Assembly (NCBI GenBank): GCA_964407105.1
Contig: CAYOUG010000001.1
Span: 8,059 to 72,058, forward strand
Length of the DNA: 64,000 nucleotides
From: an uncultured Candidatus Saccharibacteria bacterium
GTDB lineage: Bacteria > Patescibacteriota > Minisyncoccia > Phycocordibacterales > CALRHW01
Direction: 5' to 3'
The notes below the pieces were generated by a model, which made no database searches, was not told where the DNA came from, and worked only from the letters and a program-made list of their open reading frames with translations. This document shows, piece after piece, positions 3,057-59,168 of this stretch; the first letter of the stretch is position 1, and each line of letters opens with the position of its first letter. Both the position numbers and the translations under genes were made by a program.

Positions 3057-4013
3057 ATGGTTGAATTTTTAAATACCCACAAAAACATGAAATACGACAA
3101 ACAATACCCCATTAAAATTCTACCGAAATCAGACTTTCCACCACTACTAAAACATATCAATGATCCGCCACAAACACTCTATATAAGAGGTGTTCTACCA
3201 AACGACCCAGAAACCAAATATCTTTGTGTGGTGGGTTCACGAGCATATACAAATTATGGAGAAGAAGTGTGTAAAACACTCATATCTGGCTTACGAGGAC
3301 AAAACATAATAATAGTATCTGGTCTTGCGCTTGGTATTGATTCAATCGCTCACCGCTCTGCACTCGATGCCAAACTTACCACTATTGCTGTACCGGGTTC
3401 TGGTTTAAATTCCCATGTGCTGTATCCGCGAGCAAACTGGCAATTAGCAGAAAAAATTCTTGATTCTGGTGGAGTAATCATTTCTGAAGAAGAACCCTCC
3501 TATCGCGCCACGCCGTATAGTTTTCCAAAACGCAACAGAATTATGGCGGGGATGTCTCATGCTGTGCTTGTTATAGAAGCCGAGCTTAAATCTGGCACAC
3601 TCATCACATCAAAATACGCAACAGAATACAATAGAGACGTTTTCACAGTCCCCGGCTCTATTTTTTCAAAAAAATCTGATGGGCCACACATGCTTCTAAG
3701 ACTGGGCGCTACACCCGTGAGAAAAAGTGATGATATTTTAGAAGCGCTTGGTTTCAGTGTTGAAGATGAAAATAAAAAAGAAAAAACACCGGAACAAATA
3801 CAAGCGCTTTATCAAAAAACTCTTACACTTTGCACACCCGACGAACGCGCCACGCTCAGCATTCTCGCCGACACATCTCATACGCGCGACGAACTCATTA
3901 GACTTCTCACAAAATCTCTTGAAAAACCAGTTTCAGAAATTACAGCATTACTCATGATGATGGAAATTAAAGATCTTATTGTTGAAAAAATGGGAGAAAT
4001 ATTTATAGTGTAA
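3057..4013 (+). CDS. dprA: DNA processing protein DprA (Smf)
   Basis: 318 aa; Rossmann-like DprA core (GSRAYTNYG...GLALGIDSIAHRSAL...VIEAELKSGTLITSKYA). Lies upstream of topA as in many bacteria. Confidence 0.88.
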   Translation: MVEFLNTHKNMKYDKQYPIKILPKSDFPPLLKHINDPPQTLYIRGVLPNDPETKYLCVVGSRAYTNYGEEVCKTLISGLRGQNIIIVSGLALGIDSIAHRSALDAKLTTIAVPGSGLNSHVLYPRANWQLAEKILDSGGVIISEEEPSYRATPYSFPKRNRIMAGMSHAVLVIEAELKSGTLITSKYATEYNRDVFTVPGSIFSKKSDGPHMLLRLGATPVRKSDDILEALGFSVEDENKKEKTPEQIQALYQKTLTLCTPDERATLSILADTSHTRDELIRLLTKSLEKPVSEITALLMMMEIKDLIVEKMGEIFIV

Positions 4014-4044
4014 ATTTGCAAAAAAAAATTATCTATAGTATTAA

Positions 4045-6264
4045 TTGAGTCACATGAAATTACTTATTGTCGAGTCGCCAGCAAAAGCAAAAACTATTTC
4101 AAAATATTTGGATGGTAAATTTACTGTGAAAGCATCAGTAGGTCATATTCGTGATTTACCAAAAAATAATAAAAAAGCAATCGACATCGAAGGTGGTTTT
4201 ATTCCTCACTATGAAATTTCAAAAGGTAAAGAGAATGTTGTGTCAGAAATAAAAGCGCTCGTAAAAAAAGCAGATGAAATTTATCTTGCTACCGACCCTG
4301 ATCGAGAAGGTGAGGCTATAGCTTGGCATATTGCGCAAGCCACGGGGATTAAAAATCCACAACGTGTCGTTTTTCACGAAATCACCAAAGATGCAGTAAC
4401 AGAAGCAATTCAACATCCGCGCGATATAGACGACAATTTAAAACAAGCTCAAGAAGCACGACGTGTGCTCGATCGTCTTGTGGGTTACGATCTTTCCGGC
4501 ATCATCTGGAAAAAAGTACGCTACGGTCTTTCTGCTGGACGCGTACAGTCGCCAGCTCTTCGTATTCTAATGGAAAGAGAACGAGAAATCCGCGCGTTCA
4601 TTTCTAATAAATTTTGGACAATCACCGCAGATCTTGAAAACACTGCAAAAAATAAACTCACATACACATGCGCGGACGAGCCAACAGATTTTTCTGTTGT
4701 AGAAAAAATTCTCTCTGCGGGAAAAGCTGGTGAATGGAAAATTACAGATATTAAAGAAACAGAAGTAAAACGTTCACCACGTGCACCGTTTACCACGTCC
4801 ACACTTCAACAAGCCGCAAGTTCACGACTTGGTTTTGCTCCATCAAAAACGATGGGGATTGCGCAAAAACTTTATGAAGCTGGACATATTTCATACATGC
4901 GCACAGACAGTACAACCCTTAGCTCACTTGCTATCGAACAAATTTCTGGGGTTATAGAAAAAAAGTTTGGAAAAAATTATCTCTCAGTGCGTGCATATAA
5001 AACAAAAAGTAAAAATGCACAGGAAGCACACGAAGCCGTACGACCAACACATTTTGGTAGTGAAAATGCTGGAACAACCGATGAACAAAAAAAACTTTAT
5101 CGACTTATTTGGCGTCGAGCAGTGGCTTCTCAAATGTCTGATGCAAATACGTTGCGTACACGCGTGACCACAAACATTGGTATAGCAGATGGTGTTGCGG
5201 GCGCTAAAACAGAGGCAATCCCCGATTTTCACGTCAATGGTTCTCGTATTCTTTTTGATGGGTGGTATGCCGCTGATCCCGCCGCTCGACAAGAAGATGT
5301 AGAACTCCCAAAAATGAGTATCGGTGAAGCATTAAAACTTATTGAAATAAAAACGGAAGAAAAAGAAACTCAACCACCAACACGTTATTCTGAAGCGGGT
5401 CTTGTAAAAGAGTTAGAAAAGCGCGGTATCGGTCGCCCATCTACTTACGCAAATATCATTAAAACAATTGTCGATCGTGGATACGTCCTCAAACAAAACA
5501 AAGCACTCGTACCCACAGACATTGGCGATGTTGTGAGCTCGTTTCTCGAAGACAATTTTATGAAATATATCAGTGATTCATTTACTGCTGAAATGGAAGA
5601 TAAGCTCGATGATATTGCAGAAGGAAAAGCTGAATATGAGAAAATTTTAAGCGCCTATTACAAACCATTAGCAAAAGAAGTTAAAGAAAAAGAAAAGCTC
5701 GCAAAAGCCACAGACCTCGGAAAAGCTCCAGCAGAATTTAAATGTCCTGTATGCAAAAGCGACATGATTATCAAACTCAGTAAGAGTGGAAGGTTTATGA
5801 GTTGTGAAAAATTTCCTGAATGTACTGGTGCTCGCACAATAGAAGGAAAAGAACTTGAGGGTCCAAAAGAAACAGGCGAAATGTGTCCTGAATGTAGTAC
5901 AGGTAAACTCATAGAACGCGACGGAAAGTTTGGACGTTTTATCGCATGCAACAATTATCCAAAATGTAAGTTTATTAAAAAAGACGCCGAGCTTGAAAAA
6001 CAAAATTCTACTGGTGTAACATGTCCTATCTGTAAAGATGGAATGATGACTGAACGCAGAGGACGTTTTGGACTTTTTTATAGTTGTAGCAATTATCCAA
6101 AATGTAAGCACGCCATAAAAGCAAAACCGACAGGAAATATTTGTGGCTACATGCGCGAAAACGGCCCGTGTCCTGCGCTAATGATGGAAGGTACGAAAAC
6201 AATTCCCGAGCGATGTTCAGATAAACTGTGTCCAAATCATAATCCGCATAAGTTGGGGAAATAA
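4045..6264 (+). CDS. topA: DNA topoisomerase I with C-terminal zinc-ribbon repeats
   Basis: 739 aa; TOPRIM N-terminus (MKLLIVESPAKAKTISKYL...GHIRDLP) and three C4 zinc-finger repeats (CPVC...C..C, CPEC, CPIC). Confidence 0.95.
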   Translation: MSHMKLLIVESPAKAKTISKYLDGKFTVKASVGHIRDLPKNNKKAIDIEGGFIPHYEISKGKENVVSEIKALVKKADEIYLATDPDREGEAIAWHIAQATGIKNPQRVVFHEITKDAVTEAIQHPRDIDDNLKQAQEARRVLDRLVGYDLSGIIWKKVRYGLSAGRVQSPALRILMEREREIRAFISNKFWTITADLENTAKNKLTYTCADEPTDFSVVEKILSAGKAGEWKITDIKETEVKRSPRAPFTTSTLQQAASSRLGFAPSKTMGIAQKLYEAGHISYMRTDSTTLSSLAIEQISGVIEKKFGKNYLSVRAYKTKSKNAQEAHEAVRPTHFGSENAGTTDEQKKLYRLIWRRAVASQMSDANTLRTRVTTNIGIADGVAGAKTEAIPDFHVNGSRILFDGWYAADPAARQEDVELPKMSIGEALKLIEIKTEEKETQPPTRYSEAGLVKELEKRGIGRPSTYANIIKTIVDRGYVLKQNKALVPTDIGDVVSSFLEDNFMKYISDSFTAEMEDKLDDIAEGKAEYEKILSAYYKPLAKEVKEKEKLAKATDLGKAPAEFKCPVCKSDMIIKLSKSGRFMSCEKFPECTGARTIEGKELEGPKETGEMCPECSTGKLIERDGKFGRFIACNNYPKCKFIKKDAELEKQNSTGVTCPICKDGMMTERRGRFGLFYSCSNYPKCKHAIKAKPTGNICGYMRENGPCPALMMEGTKTIPERCSDKLCPNHNPHKLGK

Positions 6265-6309: not shown

Positions 6310-6417
6310 AAACAATAACACTGTGTCTCGAAAACCACGCATAAAAGCCTGCTGGCTTTTTGCTACGCTCGGCCCGTCGGCCTGCGCGATGCTTTTCTCG
6401 ACACAGTGTTATTGTTT
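6310..6417. repeat. nested-hairpin intergenic repeat element, family 2, copy A
   Basis: 26-bp inverted arms (aaaacaataacactgtgtctcgaaaa / ttttctcgacacagtgttattgtttt) flank a GC-rich core ...gcctgctggctttttgctacgctcggcccgtcggcctgcgcgatgc. The core is near-identical to copy B at 11549-11652. Lies between the convergent topA and parB. Confidence 0.7.
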
Positions 6418-6424
6418 TACAAAT

Positions 6425-7480
6425 CTACACACTAAAATTTTTGATTGAATACAGCTCCTCCTCACTCTCCTGCTTTTCTGTTTTTGAGCGATCGTCAGCA
6501 AGATCTGATGTGAGAATTGGTTCTGGCGTTGAGGTTTCTTGCGATACTACATTTTGCCCCATTACCTCATCTGCATTTATAGATAAAGGTGTGGATGTAT
6601 TTTTCCCAAGTGTCTCAATATGTTTATCAAGCATCGCTGTAGCACCGCGAGATTTTTGCGATTCAAGCATATCTAAAATCGTGCGTAAGTCATCGTTTGA
6701 AAAGAAATCAATAGAAAGCTTTCCCCCATTTTCTTTTCGTTCAATAGACACGCGGGTGCCAAGCGTTTCAGAAAGTTTTTCTTCAAGTTCCACAAGCTCC
6801 GGGTCATGCATGAGCTCTTTCTTACGCACTTTATCAAAAGCAATTTTTCGAGAAATTGCTTCAGCTTCGCGTACTGTAAGTTTTTTGTAAACAATTTCTT
6901 TAAAAAGAGTATTTTGTTCTTCTGGTCTATCAACAAGCATCATGAGCGGACGCGTATGACCTTCAGAAATTTTTCCTGCACCGAGTGCATCAAGAATTTC
7001 CGATGGCAAAGAAAGAATACGGAGCGTGTTACTTACATACTCACGACTTTTACCAACCTTCGCAGCAATTTCGTTGTGCTTAAATTTAAATTCAATAGCA
7101 AGTCGCTCAAACGCTCGCGCACGATCAACAGGATTCAAGTCTTCGCGTTGAATATTTTCTATAATCGCGAGCTCAAGCTTCATAAGGTCGCTGTCATCAC
7201 CAGTTTTAATTAGCACCGGCACCTGTGTAAGACCAGCAAGCTTTGATGCACGCAAACGACGTTCACCGGCAATAATTTCATATTCCACCGCAAGTCCACC
7301 GTCTTCTTTTGGAACCTCTTTACGAGTAACGACAAGCGCCTGAAGTACACCGTATTGGCGAATAGAATCAGCGAGACTTTGGAGTTGCGCCTGATCAAAT
7401 TCGCGCCGTGGTTGAAACGGATTTGGTTTTATTTTATCTACATCCACCCAGAAAACTGAATCGTTGTAATACTGTGACAT
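6425..7480 (-). CDS. parB: chromosome partitioning protein ParB/Spo0J
   Basis: 351 aa; ParB box (VLQALVV...EIIAGERRLRASKLAGL) and HTH. No adjacent parA. Confidence 0.88.
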   Translation of the reverse strand: MSQYYNDSVFWVDVDKIKPNPFQPRREFDQAQLQSLADSIRQYGVLQALVVTRKEVPKEDGGLAVEYEIIAGERRLRASKLAGLTQVPVLIKTGDDSDLMKLELAIIENIQREDLNPVDRARAFERLAIEFKFKHNEIAAKVGKSREYVSNTLRILSLPSEILDALGAGKISEGHTRPLMMLVDRPEEQNTLFKEIVYKKLTVREAEAISRKIAFDKVRKKELMHDPELVELEEKLSETLGTRVSIERKENGGKLSIDFFSNDDLRTILDMLESQKSRGATAMLDKHIETLGKNTSTPLSINADEVMGQNVVSQETSTPEPILTSDLADDRSKTEKQESEEELYSIKNFSV

Positions 7481-9295: not shown

Positions 9296-9853
9296 TTATT
9301 TACGTCGAACAATAAGTATCGCTGAAAGTAGGATGTTTCCACATATCCAAGCTACAATCCAAGAAGAAGAAAGAAATGTGTAATACTCCACAGCAAACAG
9401 TGCCAAACAAAATCTTAAAGCATTGGTTACATAGAGCGAAAGTGTTTCTGAATATGGCTCATAATATGATTTGCGAACTGTTGGAATAAAAGCAAACATA
9501 TCAGCGAGAATAACTAAAATCATAGAGATCACAGGCTGGTCAACGATGAGCCAAAAAAATATTGCAACGAGAGATAAAACTGCCACTACCGTATCAGATC
9601 TTGTTATATCTTTCTTACCATTTTTAAAACTTAAAATAACGACCCCGATACACAAAAGTCCGGCAGATATTGTCACCAACACAGCGGGTCCAGCACCTCC
9701 CTTGATTTGTAGGGCAACAAGTAAGATCGTGAGTAGTCCCCACAATGACCAACTATAAATATGTGGGCGAGTTTTACCATTTAAAATATCACGATAGTAC
9801 GGGATATATGCCACAAAAGTTAGTACAGCAGCAGCAATGCCAATAATTTCTTT
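9296..9853 (-). CDS. integral membrane protein, PQ-loop/SemiSWEET-like repeats (ORF may extend to 9979)
   Basis: About 6-7 TM helices. LTFVAYIPYYRDILNGKTRPHIYSWSLWG resembles the PQ-loop motif (LPQ...K.T...S...W). Start chosen at MKEIIGIAAA; upstream in-frame M residues exist. Confidence 0.35.
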   Translation of the reverse strand, partial: KEIIGIAAAVLTFVAYIPYYRDILNGKTRPHIYSWSLWGLLTILLVALQIKGGAGPAVLVTISAGLLCIGVVILSFKNGKKDITRSDTVVAVLSLVAIFFWLIVDQPVISMILVILADMFAFIPTVRKSYYEPYSETLSLYVTNALRFCLALFAVEYYTFLSSSWIVAWICGNILLSAILIVRRK

Positions 9854-11548: not shown

Positions 11549-11652
11549 CTGTAAAATAAGTGTTTGAAAAGCATCGCGCAGGCCGACGGGCCGAGCGTAG
11601 CAAAATCGCAGCAGCGATTTATGCGTGGTTTTCAAACACTTATTTTATAGCT
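11549..11652. repeat. nested-hairpin intergenic repeat element, family 2, copy B (inverted relative to A)
   Basis: About 27-bp arms (taaagctgtaaaataagtgtttgaaaa / ttttcaaacacttattttatagcttta). Core is the reverse complement of ccacgcataaatcgctgctgcgattttgctacgctcggcccgtcggcctgcgcgatgc. Lies downstream of gyrB. Confidence 0.7.
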
Positions 11653-27719: not shown

Positions 27720-28589
27720 TTAATTTAATTTATTGAATATTTTTAATTTTTCTTCTGCCACTTTTTCTACAGCAAGAAGTGCTGGTTTTAAAATTTTATA
27801 TGGTGCCACCTCATCAGGATTTTCTTGTAAAAAAAGCTTTAGCGCATCACGGTATGCCACACGAAGCTCTGTGTTTATATGTACAATTCCTACACCAGCA
27901 TCAATACCATTTTGAAAATCATCGCTACTGTTGCCTGATCCACCATGAAGCACAAGTGGTACACCGGTTGCTTGTGAAATTTTTTTGATGCGTTCAATAT
28001 TTAATTTTGGATCACTTCCACCACGAAGCATGCCGTGAATATTGCCCACAGCAGGAGCAAGCATATCCACACCCGTTTCCTCTACAAACATTTTTGCTTC
28101 GTCCGAACTGGTAAGCATGTCTTCTCCTTGTGCCGCACCCTCTGGAATTTCATCTAAAATTTTTGATGACTGACCAATATATCCGAGCTCTCCTTCTATC
28201 ACTACATCACGACCACCTGACCTAGCATATTCAACACATTTTTTTGCCATCATGACATTTTCTTCAAAAGAAACTTTTGCGCCATCGAAAATAACAGAAT
28301 CAAAACCAGCGTCTATAGCCTCTTTCACTTTTTCAAATGAATATGTGTGATCGGCGTTTAGAAAAATTGGAAAATTGTGCTCTTCACGAATACTTTTCAC
28401 AAGCGCTACCGCCTGACGCACACCCACAAACTCTCGCTCACCTTCTGACACACCGATAATCACCGGCACATTTAGCTTTTTTGCTGCATTAAAAATCCCC
28501 CACAACGCCTCAAGATTTGAAATATTAAAATGTCCCACCGCCACACCTTTTTGCATCGCCTCCGCGACCGTTTCTCGTAATGTTTTCAT
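27720..28589 (-). CDS. fba: class II fructose-bisphosphate aldolase
   Basis: Start at MKTLRETVAEAMQKGVAVGHFN; LNADHTYSFE and LHGGSG metal-site motifs. Confidence 0.9.
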   Translation of the reverse strand: MKTLRETVAEAMQKGVAVGHFNISNLEALWGIFNAAKKLNVPVIIGVSEGEREFVGVRQAVALVKSIREEHNFPIFLNADHTYSFEKVKEAIDAGFDSVIFDGAKVSFEENVMMAKKCVEYARSGGRDVVIEGELGYIGQSSKILDEIPEGAAQGEDMLTSSDEAKMFVEETGVDMLAPAVGNIHGMLRGGSDPKLNIERIKKISQATGVPLVLHGGSGNSSDDFQNGIDAGVGIVHINTELRVAYRDALKLFLQENPDEVAPYKILKPALLAVEKVAEEKLKIFNKLN

Positions 28590-28761
28590 GGATATATAGT
28601 AACACACCAATGTGTAGACTATTTCCACATAAAAGAAAAAGCCCTGCACGCGATGTACAGAGCTTCCATTGTTTACGTTTTGGAATACGTTGCGACAACA
28701 TTGTCGCGAAGGACTAAGGTCAAGGGTTCAAGAAGACCCAAGGTGACCGAAGTCCTGAGTA

Positions 28762-29385
28762 CTAACTTTCGAAGCGAGCTGCGAGGCTGCGGCCGTCCCA
28801 GACGCTGTCGAGCCTGTCCCAAGGCACCACCACCTGGTCGCCGTAGCCGTAAAAATACGGGACGCAGCGACGGCCGTAGCGATCGCGTACGACGCTCTTC
28901 CAGCAGAAGACGACCTTTTTCCCGAACCGTTTCCGGAAGGTCTTGATGTCCACCAGCTTGGCGATGGCAAGTGCGTCGTGGAGACCAAGACATGTCTTGA
29001 GCGTGCCATTCTGACCAAGATGGTCGTAGATGACGTCGCCAGTCGTAGTGCAGCCATCCTTCTGGTCGTTGTGGAGCCAGAGCTTAACCCGTGTAAGGTC
29101 GTACTCGGTTGGACCGACAGACTCCAATTCTGGATGGAGTACCTCCGTTACCCAGTTTGGGTAAACGGGACGAATGGAACGGTCGACGCGGATGAAGGTG
29201 TTAGACGGTTCTTGTTCAGACGATCCGCTAACGATACCCTGAAAGATGTTTACGATCTTCTCAGGGTCACGCTTGCCGTCCAAGACAAGCTTGTTGACTG
29301 TCGTCTGAAGCTTCCAAAGCCGTGAAATCACAGCCGCTTCAGCGATTTGATCCATATCTTCTTTCGTCATACCATTACTCATGGC
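28762..29385 (-). CDS. hypothetical protein in a ~65% GC island (likely horizontally acquired)
   Basis: Start taken at MSNGMTKEDMDQ, with aggggaaacgcc immediately upstream. No recognisable family. Confidence 0.5.
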   Translation of the reverse strand, partial: AMSNGMTKEDMDQIAEAAVISRLWKLQTTVNKLVLDGKRDPEKIVNIFQGIVSGSSEQEPSNTFIRVDRSIRPVYPNWVTEVLHPELESVGPTEYDLTRVKLWLHNDQKDGCTTTGDVIYDHLGQNGTLKTCLGLHDALAIAKLVDIKTFRKRFGKKVVFCWKSVVRDRYGRRCVPYFYGYGDQVVVPWDRLDSVWDGRSLAARFES

Positions 29386-29570
29386 GTTTCCCCTAAAAAG
29401 AGTTTGCCCGCTACTTACAGGCATCTGAAGGGACGTATGGTTCCACAATAGAGCCACTATGTCCGAACAATTCCATTAATTATTATAAACTTTTTTTAAA
29501 AAATGTCAATATATCTGAGTAACCATTCTTCTATTCCTCCCACATTCACTTTTTATGCTACAATTTTCTC

Positions 29571-30572
29571 ATGTTCAAACAATTAGATTTTTTAGCTATT
29601 GGTGACACTGTTACCGATGCATTTATTAGACTTGAAGACGCGGACGTGCACTGTGATGTAAACCGCGAACATTGTAAACTTTGTGTAAAATTTGCAGATA
29701 AAATTCCTTACGAATTTGTAGAGGTGGTAAAAGCTGTGGGAAATAGTGCAAACGCCGCAGTATCTGCAGCTCGACTCGGATTGAATACCGGAATCATAAC
29801 CAACTTAGGAAAAGATGCTAATGGTGTGGATTGTTTAAAAGAGTTCAAAAGAAATGGCGTCTCAACAAAATACGTCACGATGCATCGTGGAATGCAAACA
29901 AACTATCACTACGTATTGTGGTTTGAAGATGAGCGCACTATTTTAGTAAAACATCAAGAATATCCATATTCATTTCCTTCAGCACGAGCACCAAAATGGT
30001 TGTATTTAAGTTCGCTTGCATCAAATTCTTTTGAATATCACATGCAGATTGCTCAATATCTTAAAAAAAATCCCTCAGTCAAACTCGCTTTTCAACCCGG
30101 CACATTTCAAATGAAACTTGGTTATGAAAAATTAAAAGAAATTTATCAACACACTGAAATATTTTTCTGCAACGTAGAAGAAGCAAAAAGAATTTTAGGA
30201 ATTTCTGAGGGTGAACAAATAGAAATTAAAGATTTGCTTAAAAAAATGCGTGAAAGCGGACCAAAAATTGTTTGCATTACAGACGGACCAAAGGGTTCAT
30301 ATGCTTTTGACGGAACGGATACATGGTTTATGCCTCCATATCCAGACACTAAACCTCCATACGAACGCACTGGCGCTGGTGATGCTTTTTCTTCGACCGT
30401 CACTTCTGCACTTGCACTTGGAAAAAATTTAGAAACGGCTCTTATGTGGGGACCTATTAATTCTATGTCTGTGGTGCAATATGTGGGCGCTCAAAAGGGT
30501 TTACTTTCTCAACAAGCACTCTTAGATTTTCTTGCAAAAGCTCCAGCAGACTACAAGCCAAGAAAAATTTAA
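29571..30572 (+). CDS. PfkB-family carbohydrate/nucleoside kinase
   Basis: 333 aa; ribokinase-like fold; C-terminal TGAGDAF anion-hole motif. Confidence 0.8.
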   Translation: MFKQLDFLAIGDTVTDAFIRLEDADVHCDVNREHCKLCVKFADKIPYEFVEVVKAVGNSANAAVSAARLGLNTGIITNLGKDANGVDCLKEFKRNGVSTKYVTMHRGMQTNYHYVLWFEDERTILVKHQEYPYSFPSARAPKWLYLSSLASNSFEYHMQIAQYLKKNPSVKLAFQPGTFQMKLGYEKLKEIYQHTEIFFCNVEEAKRILGISEGEQIEIKDLLKKMRESGPKIVCITDGPKGSYAFDGTDTWFMPPYPDTKPPYERTGAGDAFSSTVTSALALGKNLETALMWGPINSMSVVQYVGAQKGLLSQQALLDFLAKAPADYKPRKI

Positions 30573-33651: not shown

Positions 33652-33767
33652 GCATATATTGTACCACGCGACACGACACAGAAAAAATACTTGACACAAT
33701 AATAAATTATCAATACAGTGTTTTAAGTCTCTTGTTCCCCAACACTCTCAACGAAAGGAGTATTTCA

Positions 33768-34118
33768 ATGGGAAAAATTATCGGATTGAGCTTCTCTCGT
33801 TGTGTGGCTGCCATTGCACGAGATGAAGAATCACCTGAAGATGTAGTGAAAATCTACACAAGCACTCGTATTTCCACAAACGAAGCGTGGAAAGCGGCAC
33901 TTCTGTGGCATCAACAACACCGCTGGCAAAACGACAACCCGCATCTTTGCATGCAAATTGCCGTCAAGCTCATCAAAGCTAAGAAGATTATCCAGCCATG
34001 GATCACAAAGGGTGTGGTGCCCGAAGTGATCAGCAACGACAAAATCTGGATCCTAGAATCAGAGGAAGGAAAAATCGTCTGGATCCAAGCGCCACAGGTT
34101 GTCCAAAAGCAAAGCTAA
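33768..34118 (+). CDS. hypothetical protein (GC-rich, ~50% GC, isolated plus-strand gene)
   Basis: Start at MGKIIGLSF with SD aaaggag. No family recognised. Followed by a hairpin and T-run at about 34150-34195. Confidence 0.4.
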   Translation: MGKIIGLSFSRCVAAIARDEESPEDVVKIYTSTRISTNEAWKAALLWHQQHRWQNDNPHLCMQIAVKLIKAKKIIQPWITKGVVPEVISNDKIWILESEEGKIVWIQAPQVVQKQS

Positions 34119-46275: not shown

Positions 46276-46869
46276 TCAGTCCTCAGCCTGCGGCTTGGGC
46301 TTAGGCTTCGGTGCTGGCGTCGGTGGTGGTCCAGGTGGTGGACCGCCGCCAACCCAGAAACAAGTGCTGGCTGTGAGAGCGTCGCACTTTGTGCCATTGG
46401 TGCACATTGTCGTTGTGCAACCGAACGTGACACCGTCATGGCAATCACATGGTTGCATGAGCACAACGACCGTGCCTCCGGGTGCAGGCATCGAGACTCC
46501 ACCGATTGCTCCGGCGACAATCACGTTGTCGCCAAGGTCGATGTTGTACTCAAACACCTGCACGCCGTTTGGCAAGATTCCGAGTGTGCCAAACACCGAG
46601 ACAACCATTCCGCTGGAAGTGGGAACAGCTGTGTAGGAAAACTTGTTTCCTACAACGGTTTGTGTGACGACGAATTCTTGTTCGCCGACAACAACCGTGA
46701 TGTTTCCGCTCACATGAGCGACGGAAACATCCTCGAACGGCAATTCAAAGGAAGCCGTTTTTCCCGTCATCGCCTTGGCGATATCAAAGCCGTTTCCAGC
46801 AAACGCTGGAACGGTGGGGATCGCCATTGCAACAAGCAAGGCGACAAGGCTCATCATTTTCCTGATCAT
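46276..46869 (-). CDS. hypothetical secreted protein, Cys-rich, with C-terminal Pro/Lys-rich tail (GC-rich island)
   Basis: 197 aa; signal peptide MIRKMMSLVALLVAMAIPTVPAFA; C-terminus ...GGGPPPGPPPTPAPKPKPKPQAED. About 55% GC versus a ~37% background. Confidence 0.5.
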   Translation of the reverse strand: MIRKMMSLVALLVAMAIPTVPAFAGNGFDIAKAMTGKTASFELPFEDVSVAHVSGNITVVVGEQEFVVTQTVVGNKFSYTAVPTSSGMVVSVFGTLGILPNGVQVFEYNIDLGDNVIVAGAIGGVSMPAPGGTVVVLMQPCDCHDGVTFGCTTTMCTNGTKCDALTASTCFWVGGGPPPGPPPTPAPKPKPKPQAED

Positions 46870-46937
46870 TACTCACTCCTTTGTTTGGAGTTTTCCCGAC
46901 CGAAAAAAAACGCAATCCCCTCTCTAAATCAGTAGTT

Positions 46938-47954
46938 TCAATCTGTTTTTCGCGCGGTCACCTCCATGGTTTGTGTTGGAACGAGATGAGAGTATTTGTA
47001 GCTGTACCTGTCGAACAGGTAATTTTGCCACGGCGTATACGGTGGCTCTGGCCATCGTACGTCGTTTGTGCGTTCAATTTCCCACCGAAGAATCAAAAAC
47101 GTTTTTGTGTCGATGTACATGTGGTCGTTTCTGACCGTCCATGACCGACGCGCACTGCCTCTCATCTTGCCCTCAGATCCTTCGTCCTGAGTAGCAACGT
47201 GGTAAACCTCCTTTCCGTCAAGCGTTTCTAGAGTAACAACTGATGTTCGACCAATTGTATCCATGAAAGCTTTGGCCTGAGAACTCCTATCGAGCCATGT
47301 GTTATGGAACTGTCCAATAGCACACACCGCCGCAGGAATTTCATCCGTAAGACAAGGCTGTGTTTTTAGATTCACATCACCAAACCCATGTGGATCTGGA
47401 GCTGGATATGAATCTGAGAAGTAGCCAACTTGCCCTGGTGTGTCATACCAGTTTGTTTCAGTGCACTCCCCGTCCTTGAGACTGAGGATGAGCTGTGGTT
47501 TATCAGCAGAAGTCTTCCGCATTTTGGTGCTGAAAGATTTTCTACCCATATCCGCACTTATTGAAACATGAGATGTGATAACACCAGGAAGGGTTGCTAC
47601 CGCGACACGAGGATTGAGCATCTCTCGCACCTGTCCCTCAGCAAGCTGGGGGGTTTGTACATAAGAGATCTCTAGCGTGGCTTCAAAAGCCAGTGAATCG
47701 AGAGAAGCATAGGCTTCCCCGACCTTTTTTGCAATTTCCTCCACGGTTGGAAGCGGAATTGAAATTGGCTTTGCCGACGTTTCGGGGGTTCCGATCGAAG
47801 CTTTCGCTTCGCTCGGAACTGTTTCTTCAGTCGCCACAACCAATGCCATACTGGCGGTAGTTGCGACAAGCATCAGAAGCGCGGTCCAAACAAGCGTTAG
47901 ACTTTTCACGGAATCCACCTTTCTTGAAAATTTAGAGTAGGAAAAAAACGGCAC
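46938..47954 (-). CDS. hypothetical secreted protein (possible LolA/RseB-like fold), GC-rich island
   Basis: 338 aa; N-terminal TM/signal; no confident family. Lies upstream of, and on the same strand as, the 197-aa secreted protein. Confidence 0.45.
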   Translation of the reverse strand: MPFFSYSKFSRKVDSVKSLTLVWTALLMLVATTASMALVVATEETVPSEAKASIGTPETSAKPISIPLPTVEEIAKKVGEAYASLDSLAFEATLEISYVQTPQLAEGQVREMLNPRVAVATLPGVITSHVSISADMGRKSFSTKMRKTSADKPQLILSLKDGECTETNWYDTPGQVGYFSDSYPAPDPHGFGDVNLKTQPCLTDEIPAAVCAIGQFHNTWLDRSSQAKAFMDTIGRTSVVTLETLDGKEVYHVATQDEGSEGKMRGSARRSWTVRNDHMYIDTKTFLILRWEIERTNDVRWPEPPYTPWQNYLFDRYSYKYSHLVPTQTMEVTARKTD

Positions 47955-55064: not shown

Positions 55065-55242
55065 TTGCAAAATTGGTGCTGCCGATCAGGGACTCTCGGC
55101 TACCGCCGCGGGTGCTTTTCGGTCTCGCATGCGAGTACGCACACTCGACAACGAAAAGCCTTTCGAGTCCCTGACGAAAGTGCCGCGGGGCACTTTCTAT
55201 CGCCAGCACTCCGCTTCGCTACGTGCTGCCGATCAGGGACTC
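55065..55242. repeat. 20-bp direct repeats (gtgctgccgatcagggactc) duplicating the 3' end of tRNA-Gln, flanking ~140 bp of hairpin-rich DNA (att-like scar)
   Basis: Identical 20-mers at 55065-55084 and 55223-55242. The second is the 3' end of the tRNA gene. The interval has inverted repeats (cagggactc/gagtccctg; gaaagtgcc/ggcactttc). Confidence 0.6.
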
Positions 55243-55296
55243 GAACCCCAATTAACCGCTCCAGAGGCGGTCGTCCTACCATTAGACGAATCGGCA
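55226..55296 (-). tRNA. tRNA-Gln (anticodon CTG), U1-A72
   Basis: Reverse complement TGCCGATTCGTCTAATGGTAGGACGACCGCCTCTGGAGCGGTTAATTGGGGTTCGAGTCCCTGATCGGCAG. Anticodon loop CTCTGGA; a T-stem with two G-U pairs lowers confidence. Confidence 0.65.
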
Positions 55297-55397: not shown

Positions 55398-55610
55398 TTA
55401 TCGGATGGTTGCACCACGCTCGTTCAGAACGAGCCGTCCGAAGTCATCAACGTAAGAACGTTTTTCTGGGTCATACCTCAATCCACGCGCCTCAGCCGCT
55501 TCAACGTTGCGAGGATGCTCTGGTCTCAAACTCGCACAAAAAACTGGTTGGGGTTTTGTTGCAGGTTTCTGTGTTGCTGACTTCGGATTCGGAGTCTTCT
55601 TCGTCGTCAT
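55398..55610 (-). CDS. hypothetical small basic protein (70 aa), GC-rich
   Basis: SD aaaggaaa 6 nt upstream of the ATG; followed by the terminator hairpin. About 55% GC. Confidence 0.45.
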   Translation of the reverse strand: MTTKKTPNPKSATQKPATKPQPVFCASLRPEHPRNVEAAEARGLRYDPEKRSYVDDFGRLVLNERGATIR

Positions 55611-59049: not shown

Positions 59050-59168
59050 AAAAAAGCAGAGAAATGTGTGTTTTCTCAGCACGCGTCAAAGCCTGCTGGC
59101 TTTGCTGCTCCGCTCGGCGCCGTCGCGCCTGCGCGAGTCTTCGTAAACACACATTTCTCTGCTTTTTT
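59050..59168. repeat. nested-hairpin intergenic repeat element, family 2, copy C
   Basis: Arms aaaaaagcagagaaatgtgtgttt/aaacacacatttctctgctttttt flank the core ...aagcctgctggctttgctgctccgctcggcgccgtcgcgcctgcgcgag. Lies downstream of prfB. Confidence 0.7.

Follow-up and report, generated by a model that had tools for sequence, protein, structure and literature searches.

We consider it likely that the GC-rich gene between fba and pfkB in the stretch of DNA analyzed here (64 kb in full, hereafter the window) is a stand-alone DGR variable-protein gene that was inserted between these two neighbors and has probably ceased to be diversified. The island that it forms is sharp, and lies where the initial annotation of this DNA had placed it, but is less extreme than the ∼65% GC over ∼800 bp described there. 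The region 28650–29470 has a GC content of 52.9% and the ORF within it 54.4%, so that the island as a whole stands at 53–55%; only two 100-bp windows (28751–28900), both toward the 3′ end of the gene, attain 64%. The surrounding background, put at 37%, is 39% when measured (38.9% for the whole 64 kb). When the window is scanned in 700-bp segments, the highest GC (0.547, +4.2 SD relative to a mean of 0.389 and an SD of 0.038) is found in the segment starting at 28641, a value matched by a second island at ∼45.9–47.3 kb. The gene itself (28762–29382, minus strand) starts with the ATG of MSNGM and encodes 206 residues followed by a stop codon, or 202 residues from the next ATG, and not the 208 given earlier. 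Its GC3 of 0.66 is the highest among the 61 ORFs of the window (median 0.285), which agrees with the earlier remark that the gene does not share the codon usage of its host. No other part of the window departs more strongly in composition than the island.

The protein had been described as having no recognizable family, and it does lack a Pfam, NCBIfam or PHROG family and a sequence match in the PDB. Protein and profile searches nevertheless place it in a large family of Patescibacteria DGR variable proteins. A search of 5.8 billion proteins returned 107 homologues of ∼200–220 residues, down to E = 1e-58, all of them hypothetical proteins and, wherever a source is named, all from Patescibacteria. 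The nearest is 53% identical to the island protein. A profile search extends the family to at least 1,491 clusters at 50% identity, 443 of which are found at E ≤ 1e-30. Family members combine a variable N-terminal region of ∼55 residues with a conserved C-terminal domain of ∼145 residues that ends in the pattern VPYLxxxxxxVVxxWxWLxxxWxxxxPAxRFAS, in which variable positions alternate with invariant ones. In the island protein, residues 1–58 correspond to a variable helical hairpin and residues ∼62–206 to the conserved α/β domain; an AlphaFold2 model has a mean pLDDT of 89.7, with values above 93 in the C-terminal domain. Foldseek comparison of this model with the PDB and BFVD gave nothing significant, the best PDB match being a C-type-lectin-like snaclec at a probability of 0.21.

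Two other identities were considered for the gene and set aside. A D..DxQK motif had suggested a PD-(D/E)xK nuclease or homing endonuclease, for which there was no fold or profile support and which was dropped after the link to DGRs emerged. An IS200-like element or an integron cassette was likewise rejected, with no HUH or Y1 match, no attC and no integrase. A scan of IMG/VR contigs with two peptide patterns, the only probes used for a phage reservoir, found no family member. Several observations concern the architecture of relatives. Two long proteins, P0108 (792 aa) and P0109 (658 aa), contain three or four tandem copies of the family domain. On contig L002 (9140–9781 and 10001–10621), the N-terminal ∼45 residues of a family member (…GRMWLxALxKFLRGE…) recur in the gene upstream of it, which has a different C-terminal domain, an instance of modular shuffling of N-terminal modules between neighboring genes. 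On L006, the contig of the closest homologue (3930–4550 and 256–933), the next gene (206 aa, no Pfam match) is also GC-rich, at 0.53 vs 0.41, and a nearby ORF resembles by eye the C-terminal part of a serine recombinase, with no Pfam match at E ≤ 0.01.

The assignment of the family to DGRs comes from relatives in which the system is complete. In nine of the ∼51 relatives sampled, the last ∼126 bp of the gene constitute a DGR variable repeat (VR), and a template repeat (TR) lies 320–540 bp downstream of each of these nine distinct genes. Mismatches between VR and TR fall at TR adenines in 9/9 cases for locus L104, 17/17 for L095, 19/19 for L099 and 24/33 for L134. Beyond the TR are genes for bAvd (PF22296) and for a reverse transcriptase (RT; PF00078, E = 4e-25), the latter highly conserved, with more than 8,000 homologues at E ≤ 1e-20. 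The island protein is 46–50% identical to the DGR-linked proteins of L095 and L092 (P0011, E = 1e-42). The system is active in nature, as seen by comparing L103 and L134, which come from two samples and have flanks that are 99.3% identical: all 20 differences between the two genes are located in the VR, and 19 of them are at TR adenines. Stand-alone copies of the gene are also common, since at least 17 other family genes with 5–10 kb of sequence on both sides have no TR. The stand-alone copies that were recovered from two or more samples are 100% identical, whereas VR variation is present in three of five DGR-linked pairs.

The window copy bears the imprint of this process. Its last ∼43 codons (28766–28893, minus strand), which form the GC peak of the island, align with 10 family TRs. 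Relative to the consensus of these TRs, which serves here as a surrogate for a cognate template, the window sequence differs at 19 of 33 adenine columns and at 15 of 79 other columns (Fisher p = 1e-4), leaving a scaffold that is 81% identical to the consensus at non-adenine columns. Each of the 12 codons that read AAC or AAT in the family TRs has been replaced, the window having GAT, TAC, CGT, TGC, TAC, CCT, GAC, AGC, GAC, CGC, AGC and AGT. Three of these 12 codons end in T and one Trp codon of the scaffold has become AGG, changes that drift after the last homing event could have produced. The remaining parts of a DGR are missing from the window. No repeat of 28700–28990 that could serve as a TR is present anywhere in the 64 kb, and tblastn searches of the window with the L104 RT and Avd gave a best E value of 1.3. 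These searches cover 28.7 kb on one side of the gene and 34.6 kb on the other, within a source contig of 284 kb. The window gene, which is known from one sample only, thus combines an adenine footprint (scored against the surrogate template), a downstream hairpin and homology to diversified proteins with the absence of a cognate TR, RT and Avd in the surrounding 64 kb, and it must therefore be either an orphan or a remote target.

The hairpin lies 7 nt after the stop codon (28711–28755, minus strand) and is built of three tiers, GGACT/AGTCC, GGTCA/TGACC and GGGTC/GA(A)CCC, spanning 45 nt. RNAfold assigns it −20.3 kcal/mol, with z = −3.2 relative to shuffled sequences. Folded independently, most of 26 family members are predicted to have the same nested three-tier topology, with stems that differ in sequence, a conservation of structure judged from individual folds because RNAalifold applied to a MAFFT alignment, in which the arms were one column off, gave no consensus. 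A second, smaller hairpin read from the sequence (GCGACAA-TG-TTGTCGC, 28692–28707, minus strand) follows, and a terminator-like stem with a T-run at 28637–28667 (minus strand) would end the transcription unit before fba.

At the other end of the unit, a sigma-70-type promoter directed toward the gene occupies 29482–29509 (minus strand). It consists of TTGACA, a 16-nt spacer and TATAAT in AT-rich DNA, matches the consensus at 12/12 positions, and is the only promoter-like site in 28500–29700; on sequence grounds it probably drives the island gene. The 5′ UTR between promoter and gene (29383–29462, minus strand) is homologous to the 5′ UTRs of family members, aligning with those of L009, L095, L112, L136 and L142. 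It extends from the loop and 3′ arm of a hairpin that is found across the family to a ribosome binding site (AGGGG, 8 nt before the ATG), and includes a small terminator-like stem and T-run at 29405–29423. The 5′ arm of the long family hairpin is absent from the window, and the covariance model for this element (R1) has no match in the 64 kb.

The complete element is a separate feature of the family. It is a hairpin of 50–55 nt (GGTCATAGCCAnAAG...CTTTCTGGCTATGACC) that is present in most relatives, for example at 9762–9817 in L099, 5945–5999 in L103 and 5264–5313 in L092, with compensatory changes in 10 of 17 predicted pairs. In 725 kb searched with model R1, it was found only upstream of family genes, apart from one extra copy in L100. 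It accompanies eight of nine DGR-linked copies and about 8 of 21 stand-alone copies (p = 0.02 in a post hoc comparison). Neither this element nor the 3′ hairpin has a match in Rfam. The 5′-UTR hairpin is a candidate regulatory or recognition element.

Comparison with relatives shows that the gene is an addition to this locus. In the window it is flanked by fba, encoding a class II aldolase (27720–28589, minus strand, ATG at 28589), and by a pfkB-family kinase gene (29571–30572, plus strand). These two genes are divergent neighbors separated by 39–170 bp in about 35 of 80 Paceibacteria relatives that were found via pfkB, and none of the 80 genomes has the island gene at this site. The island gene is thus an insertion, because fba and pfkB are adjacent in close relatives. 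The 47-bp spacers of L015 and L017 delimit the extra DNA to roughly 28.64–29.54 kb. The locus therefore has both features by which genomic islands are recognized, atypical composition and absence from the same site in relatives. Other fba–pfkB spacers of the comparison set (loci L012–L091) contain unrelated small membrane-protein ORFs of very low GC (22–29%), and the spacer is a variable spot across Paceibacteria.

Neither end of the insertion bears the marks of a mobile element. As noted initially, there is no tRNA, integrase or significant flanking repeat at the island, and we also found no transposase. The candidate target-site duplications, 29531–29545 with 28619–28630 and 29471–29482 with 28664–28675, are not significant; 58% of shuffled sequences share a 6-mer. 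Homologues with 73–75% identity are found in unrelated contexts and have nothing in common outside of the gene unit, indicating that the unit relocates over evolutionary time.

A model for the window gene can be proposed from these data. In complete cassettes, the RT and bAvd would copy the TR into cDNA, misreading adenines, and the cDNA would replace the last ∼126 bp of the target gene, thereby changing about 12 residues on what is presumed to be a ligand-binding surface; the hairpin just past the stop codon would mark the target site. The window copy would have entered the fba–pfkB spacer without a TR, avd or RT, and its consensus promoter would drive a single transcription unit. The encoded protein is most likely a binding protein whose specificity is now fixed.

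The alternative that survives best is continued rewriting of the gene in trans, by a DGR with a TR matching this VR that would lie elsewhere in the genome, at a distance of more than 28 kb on one side or more than 34 kb on the other. We regard this as possible, although clearly the less probable reading. The ORF, the VR scaffold and the 3′ hairpin are all intact, and the GC content is as high as that of DGR-linked copies. Remote targets that are not adjacent to their RT are documented for other DGRs (PMC5758913), and in the present family a single 113-kb contig holds two stand-alone copies, L113 and L140. However, in addition to the lack of a TR, RT or Avd in the 64 kb, the remote targets described by Wu et al. 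all lie outside their CPR set, and a single adjacent target is the usual arrangement for CPR DGRs (PMC5758913). The invariance of stand-alone copies between samples, set against the variation in DGR-linked pairs, also speaks against continued rewriting, and the T-ending codons and the AGG codon in the scaffold are compatible with drift. Loss of diversification in a stand-alone copy is the reading that we prefer.

The initial annotation offered recent horizontal acquisition as one explanation for the island. That the gene is an insertion relative to its relatives is borne out by the comparison above; the reading of its high GC as pointing to a recent foreign donor is not. A single recent transfer of an unknown gene out of a high-GC organism that does not belong to the lineage would account for a composition 15 points above the host, for the absence of the gene from the same site in relatives and for the lack of synteny with homologues. 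However, the family appears to be specific to Patescibacteria, the nearest homologue is only 53% identical, and the composition of family genes is above that of nearly all of the 46 hosts sampled and does not track it. Across these 46 loci, host flanks have a GC content of 0.33–0.57, whereas the family genes have 0.47–0.66 with a GC3 of 0.50–0.90. Gene GC is uncorrelated with host GC (slope 0.02, r = 0.03), and the same holds for GC3.

The complete cassettes provide an internal comparison. In seven of them, the target is richer in GC than the flanks by 0.09–0.20, whereas the RT differs from the flanks by −0.07 to 0.00; RT and avd are at host GC in 7/7 cassettes. The high GC of the target must therefore persist after long residence, because an RT immediately next to it has the composition of the host. 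Composition is not a clock in this setting, because gene GC ignores host GC and the adjacent RT and avd do not. Three of the seven cassettes, L154, L156 and L157 (targets at 6410–7150, 6328–7155 and 6419–7054), have target proteins that are unrelated to the island family; there the targets are at 0.49–0.53, the RTs at 0.31–0.38 and the flanks at 0.32–0.41. Because these targets are unrelated, the contrast is general to DGR targets of Patescibacteria. In these organisms, a high GC content belongs to DGR target genes as such and is not evidence of a recent foreign donor, an explanation that as originally stated is largely refuted and that we now regard as improbable.

The shape of the GC excess places limits on its cause. 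In 22 low-GC hosts, the excess extends from ∼100 bp before the start codon to 50–100 bp past the stop codon, is roughly flat along the ORF, and has its peak in the VR. Upstream of the VR, the frequency of A at third positions falls from 0.29 in host genes to 0.15 and that of T from 0.33 to 0.17, so the effect is strand-symmetric, with each about halved. The VR alone is specifically poor in A (0.065) and rich in C. Adenine-specific depletion was therefore rejected as the cause for the whole gene, given the strand symmetry upstream, and explains only the 3′ GC peak. Several other causes were considered and rejected. Dual coding would require open alternative frames, and these are no more open than in synonymous shuffles. 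Expression-linked codon bias does not fit the EF-Tu, EF-G and GroEL genes of the window, which have a GC3 of 0.27–0.34. A gradient of GC away from the VR is not seen, the excess being flat along the ORF, and there is no clear difference in GC between orphan and DGR-linked copies. GC-biased conversion with frequent recombination, or selection on the transcript or duplex, are candidates for the process behind the trait.

A broader proposal, which we put forward only tentatively and think more likely wrong than right, is that target units of Patescibacteria DGRs are held at ∼50–65% GC whatever the GC of the genome (33–57%), while RT and avd drift to the composition of the host. At synonymous sites both strands are enriched alike, and the enrichment ends at the UTR hairpins, a pattern that might point to an unrecognized process tied to being a DGR target, of which the stand-alone copies could be products. 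Such a process could be a GC-biased form of conversion or repair that goes along with frequent recombination or retrohoming, or selection on a transcript or duplex that DGRs require. The stand-alone copies could then be, for example, target units that spread without an RT and not simple remnants of decay.

The other explanation offered originally, an assembly chimera in which a fragment of another, higher-GC genome was joined into the contig, is very unlikely. GC does change abruptly at both ends of the island and the source is a metagenome-assembled genome. However, the Logan assembly of SRR12487045, produced by a different assembler, contains an 8,889-bp contig that is identical to the window across both junctions, and this independent reproduction of the junctions argues against a chimera. 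Single-gene GC islands of the same kind also occur in more than 20 low-GC contigs from unrelated samples, and the promoter and the terminator-like site lie inside the spacer. It is just as hard to credit a second function of the DNA, such as an overlapping gene in another frame or a structured RNA across the ORF: ORFs of 97–115 residues in alternative frames, antisense included, do overlap the gene, as the initial annotation remarked in calling them typical of high-GC DNA, and structured elements are present in both UTRs, but the alternative frames of 45 family genes are no longer than in synonymous-codon shuffles, which makes the overlapping ORFs a by-product of high GC, Rfam has no match, and the GC excess, roughly even along the ORF, affects both strands alike at third codon positions.

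Many components of this picture have precedents. CPR DGRs and targets without recognizable domains have been described (PMC8144416, PMC5758913), as have non-adjacent targets (PMC5758913) and an inverted repeat downstream of the VR (PMC5758913, PMC3240598). The closest known systems, from the same phylum, are the targets of the DGRs that Roux et al. 2021 (PMC8144416) placed in DGR clade 2 and those of the CPR set, with the unclassified VR classes UVR1–6, of Wu et al. 2018 (PMC5758913). Like targets of the Patescibacteria/CPR DGRs, the island family consists of small proteins with no recognizable domain, signal peptide or membrane segment, has the VR at the extreme C-terminus and AAY codons in the TR, and shares the cassette order target–TR–avd–RT and a conserved RT. 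The window copy differs from these systems (PMC8144416, PMC5758913) in having no TR, avd or RT within 64 kb. The family could not be assigned to any VR class or protein cluster that these studies name. In the accessible portions of PMC8144416 and PMC5758913, we did not find a GC-rich target accompanied by an RT at host GC; neither the whole-gene GC contrast nor the 5′-UTR hairpin was found in the DGR literature searched, a set that leaves out Paul et al. 2017 (Nat Microbiol 2:17045).

Beyond this phylum, the window gene resembles the remote targets of Treponema denticola and Legionella (PMC5758913), in that the VR gene lies away from an RT and the 3′ recognition elements are kept. For those targets the matching TR is known, whereas the window gene has none in 64 kb and its stand-alone relatives are invariant in the VR between samples. 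The Bordetella phage DGR needs a hairpin or cruciform for target recognition (PMC3240598). As in BPP-1 (Guo et al. 2011, PMC3240598), the inverted repeat of the window gene is directly downstream of the VR, with its structure kept and its sequence free. The BPP-1 repeat is a short one within a 24-bp downstream element, whereas that of the window is a three-tier hairpin of ∼45 nt whose role in recognition is a putative one. As in the C-type-lectin-fold proteins Mtd, TvpA and AvpA (PMC5006420), about 12 variable residues encoded by AAY are found near the C-terminus and alternate with invariant aromatic residues (W188, W196 and others).

Four other places in the window deserve mention. The second GC-rich island (46276–47954, minus strand) contains two adjacent ORFs, one of 197 aa (GC 0.55, GC3 0.59) with a Pro-rich tail and one of 338 aa (GC 0.48), each of which starts with a hydrophobic leader and lacks a Pfam match. 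The sugar-phosphate cluster includes, between gap and rpiB, a small 128-aa ORF (33732–34118, plus strand) with a GC3 of 0.52, compared with the median of 0.285, and no Pfam match; gene callers predict a 116-aa gene there on the independent Logan contig. At 55075–55296 (minus strand), the 3′ end of a tRNA-Gln gene (GAGTCCCTGATCGGCAGCAC) has a second copy ∼125 nt downstream; the two are separated by a GC-rich stretch, and the arrangement looks like an att-type duplication left by an integrating element. A small GC-rich ORF (55398–55610) lies upstream of this repeat, and Rfam matches only the tRNA. Finally, an intergenic repeat of ∼68 nt is present in three copies of mixed orientation, at 6330–6397, 11566–11633 and 59080–59141, with identities of 91% and 85%.

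With these results, what had been described as an unknown foreign gene or a chimera can be defined as a stand-alone DGR variable-protein gene. In low-GC Patescibacteria genomes, a sharp GC island confined to one gene predicts a DGR target or ex-target well; the prediction held in 22/22 low-GC loci of the family and in three unrelated target families. Because such an island marks a target or ex-target, calls of recent horizontal transfer or of contamination that are based on composition are wrong for this class of genes. The pairing of a GC-rich target with a host-like RT in one cassette needs a mechanism, and this general contrast is the part most worth following. For the bacterium itself, which is of the episymbiotic type and has a tiny genome, the window gene probably supplies a binding protein with a specificity that was written by a DGR and has since been frozen.
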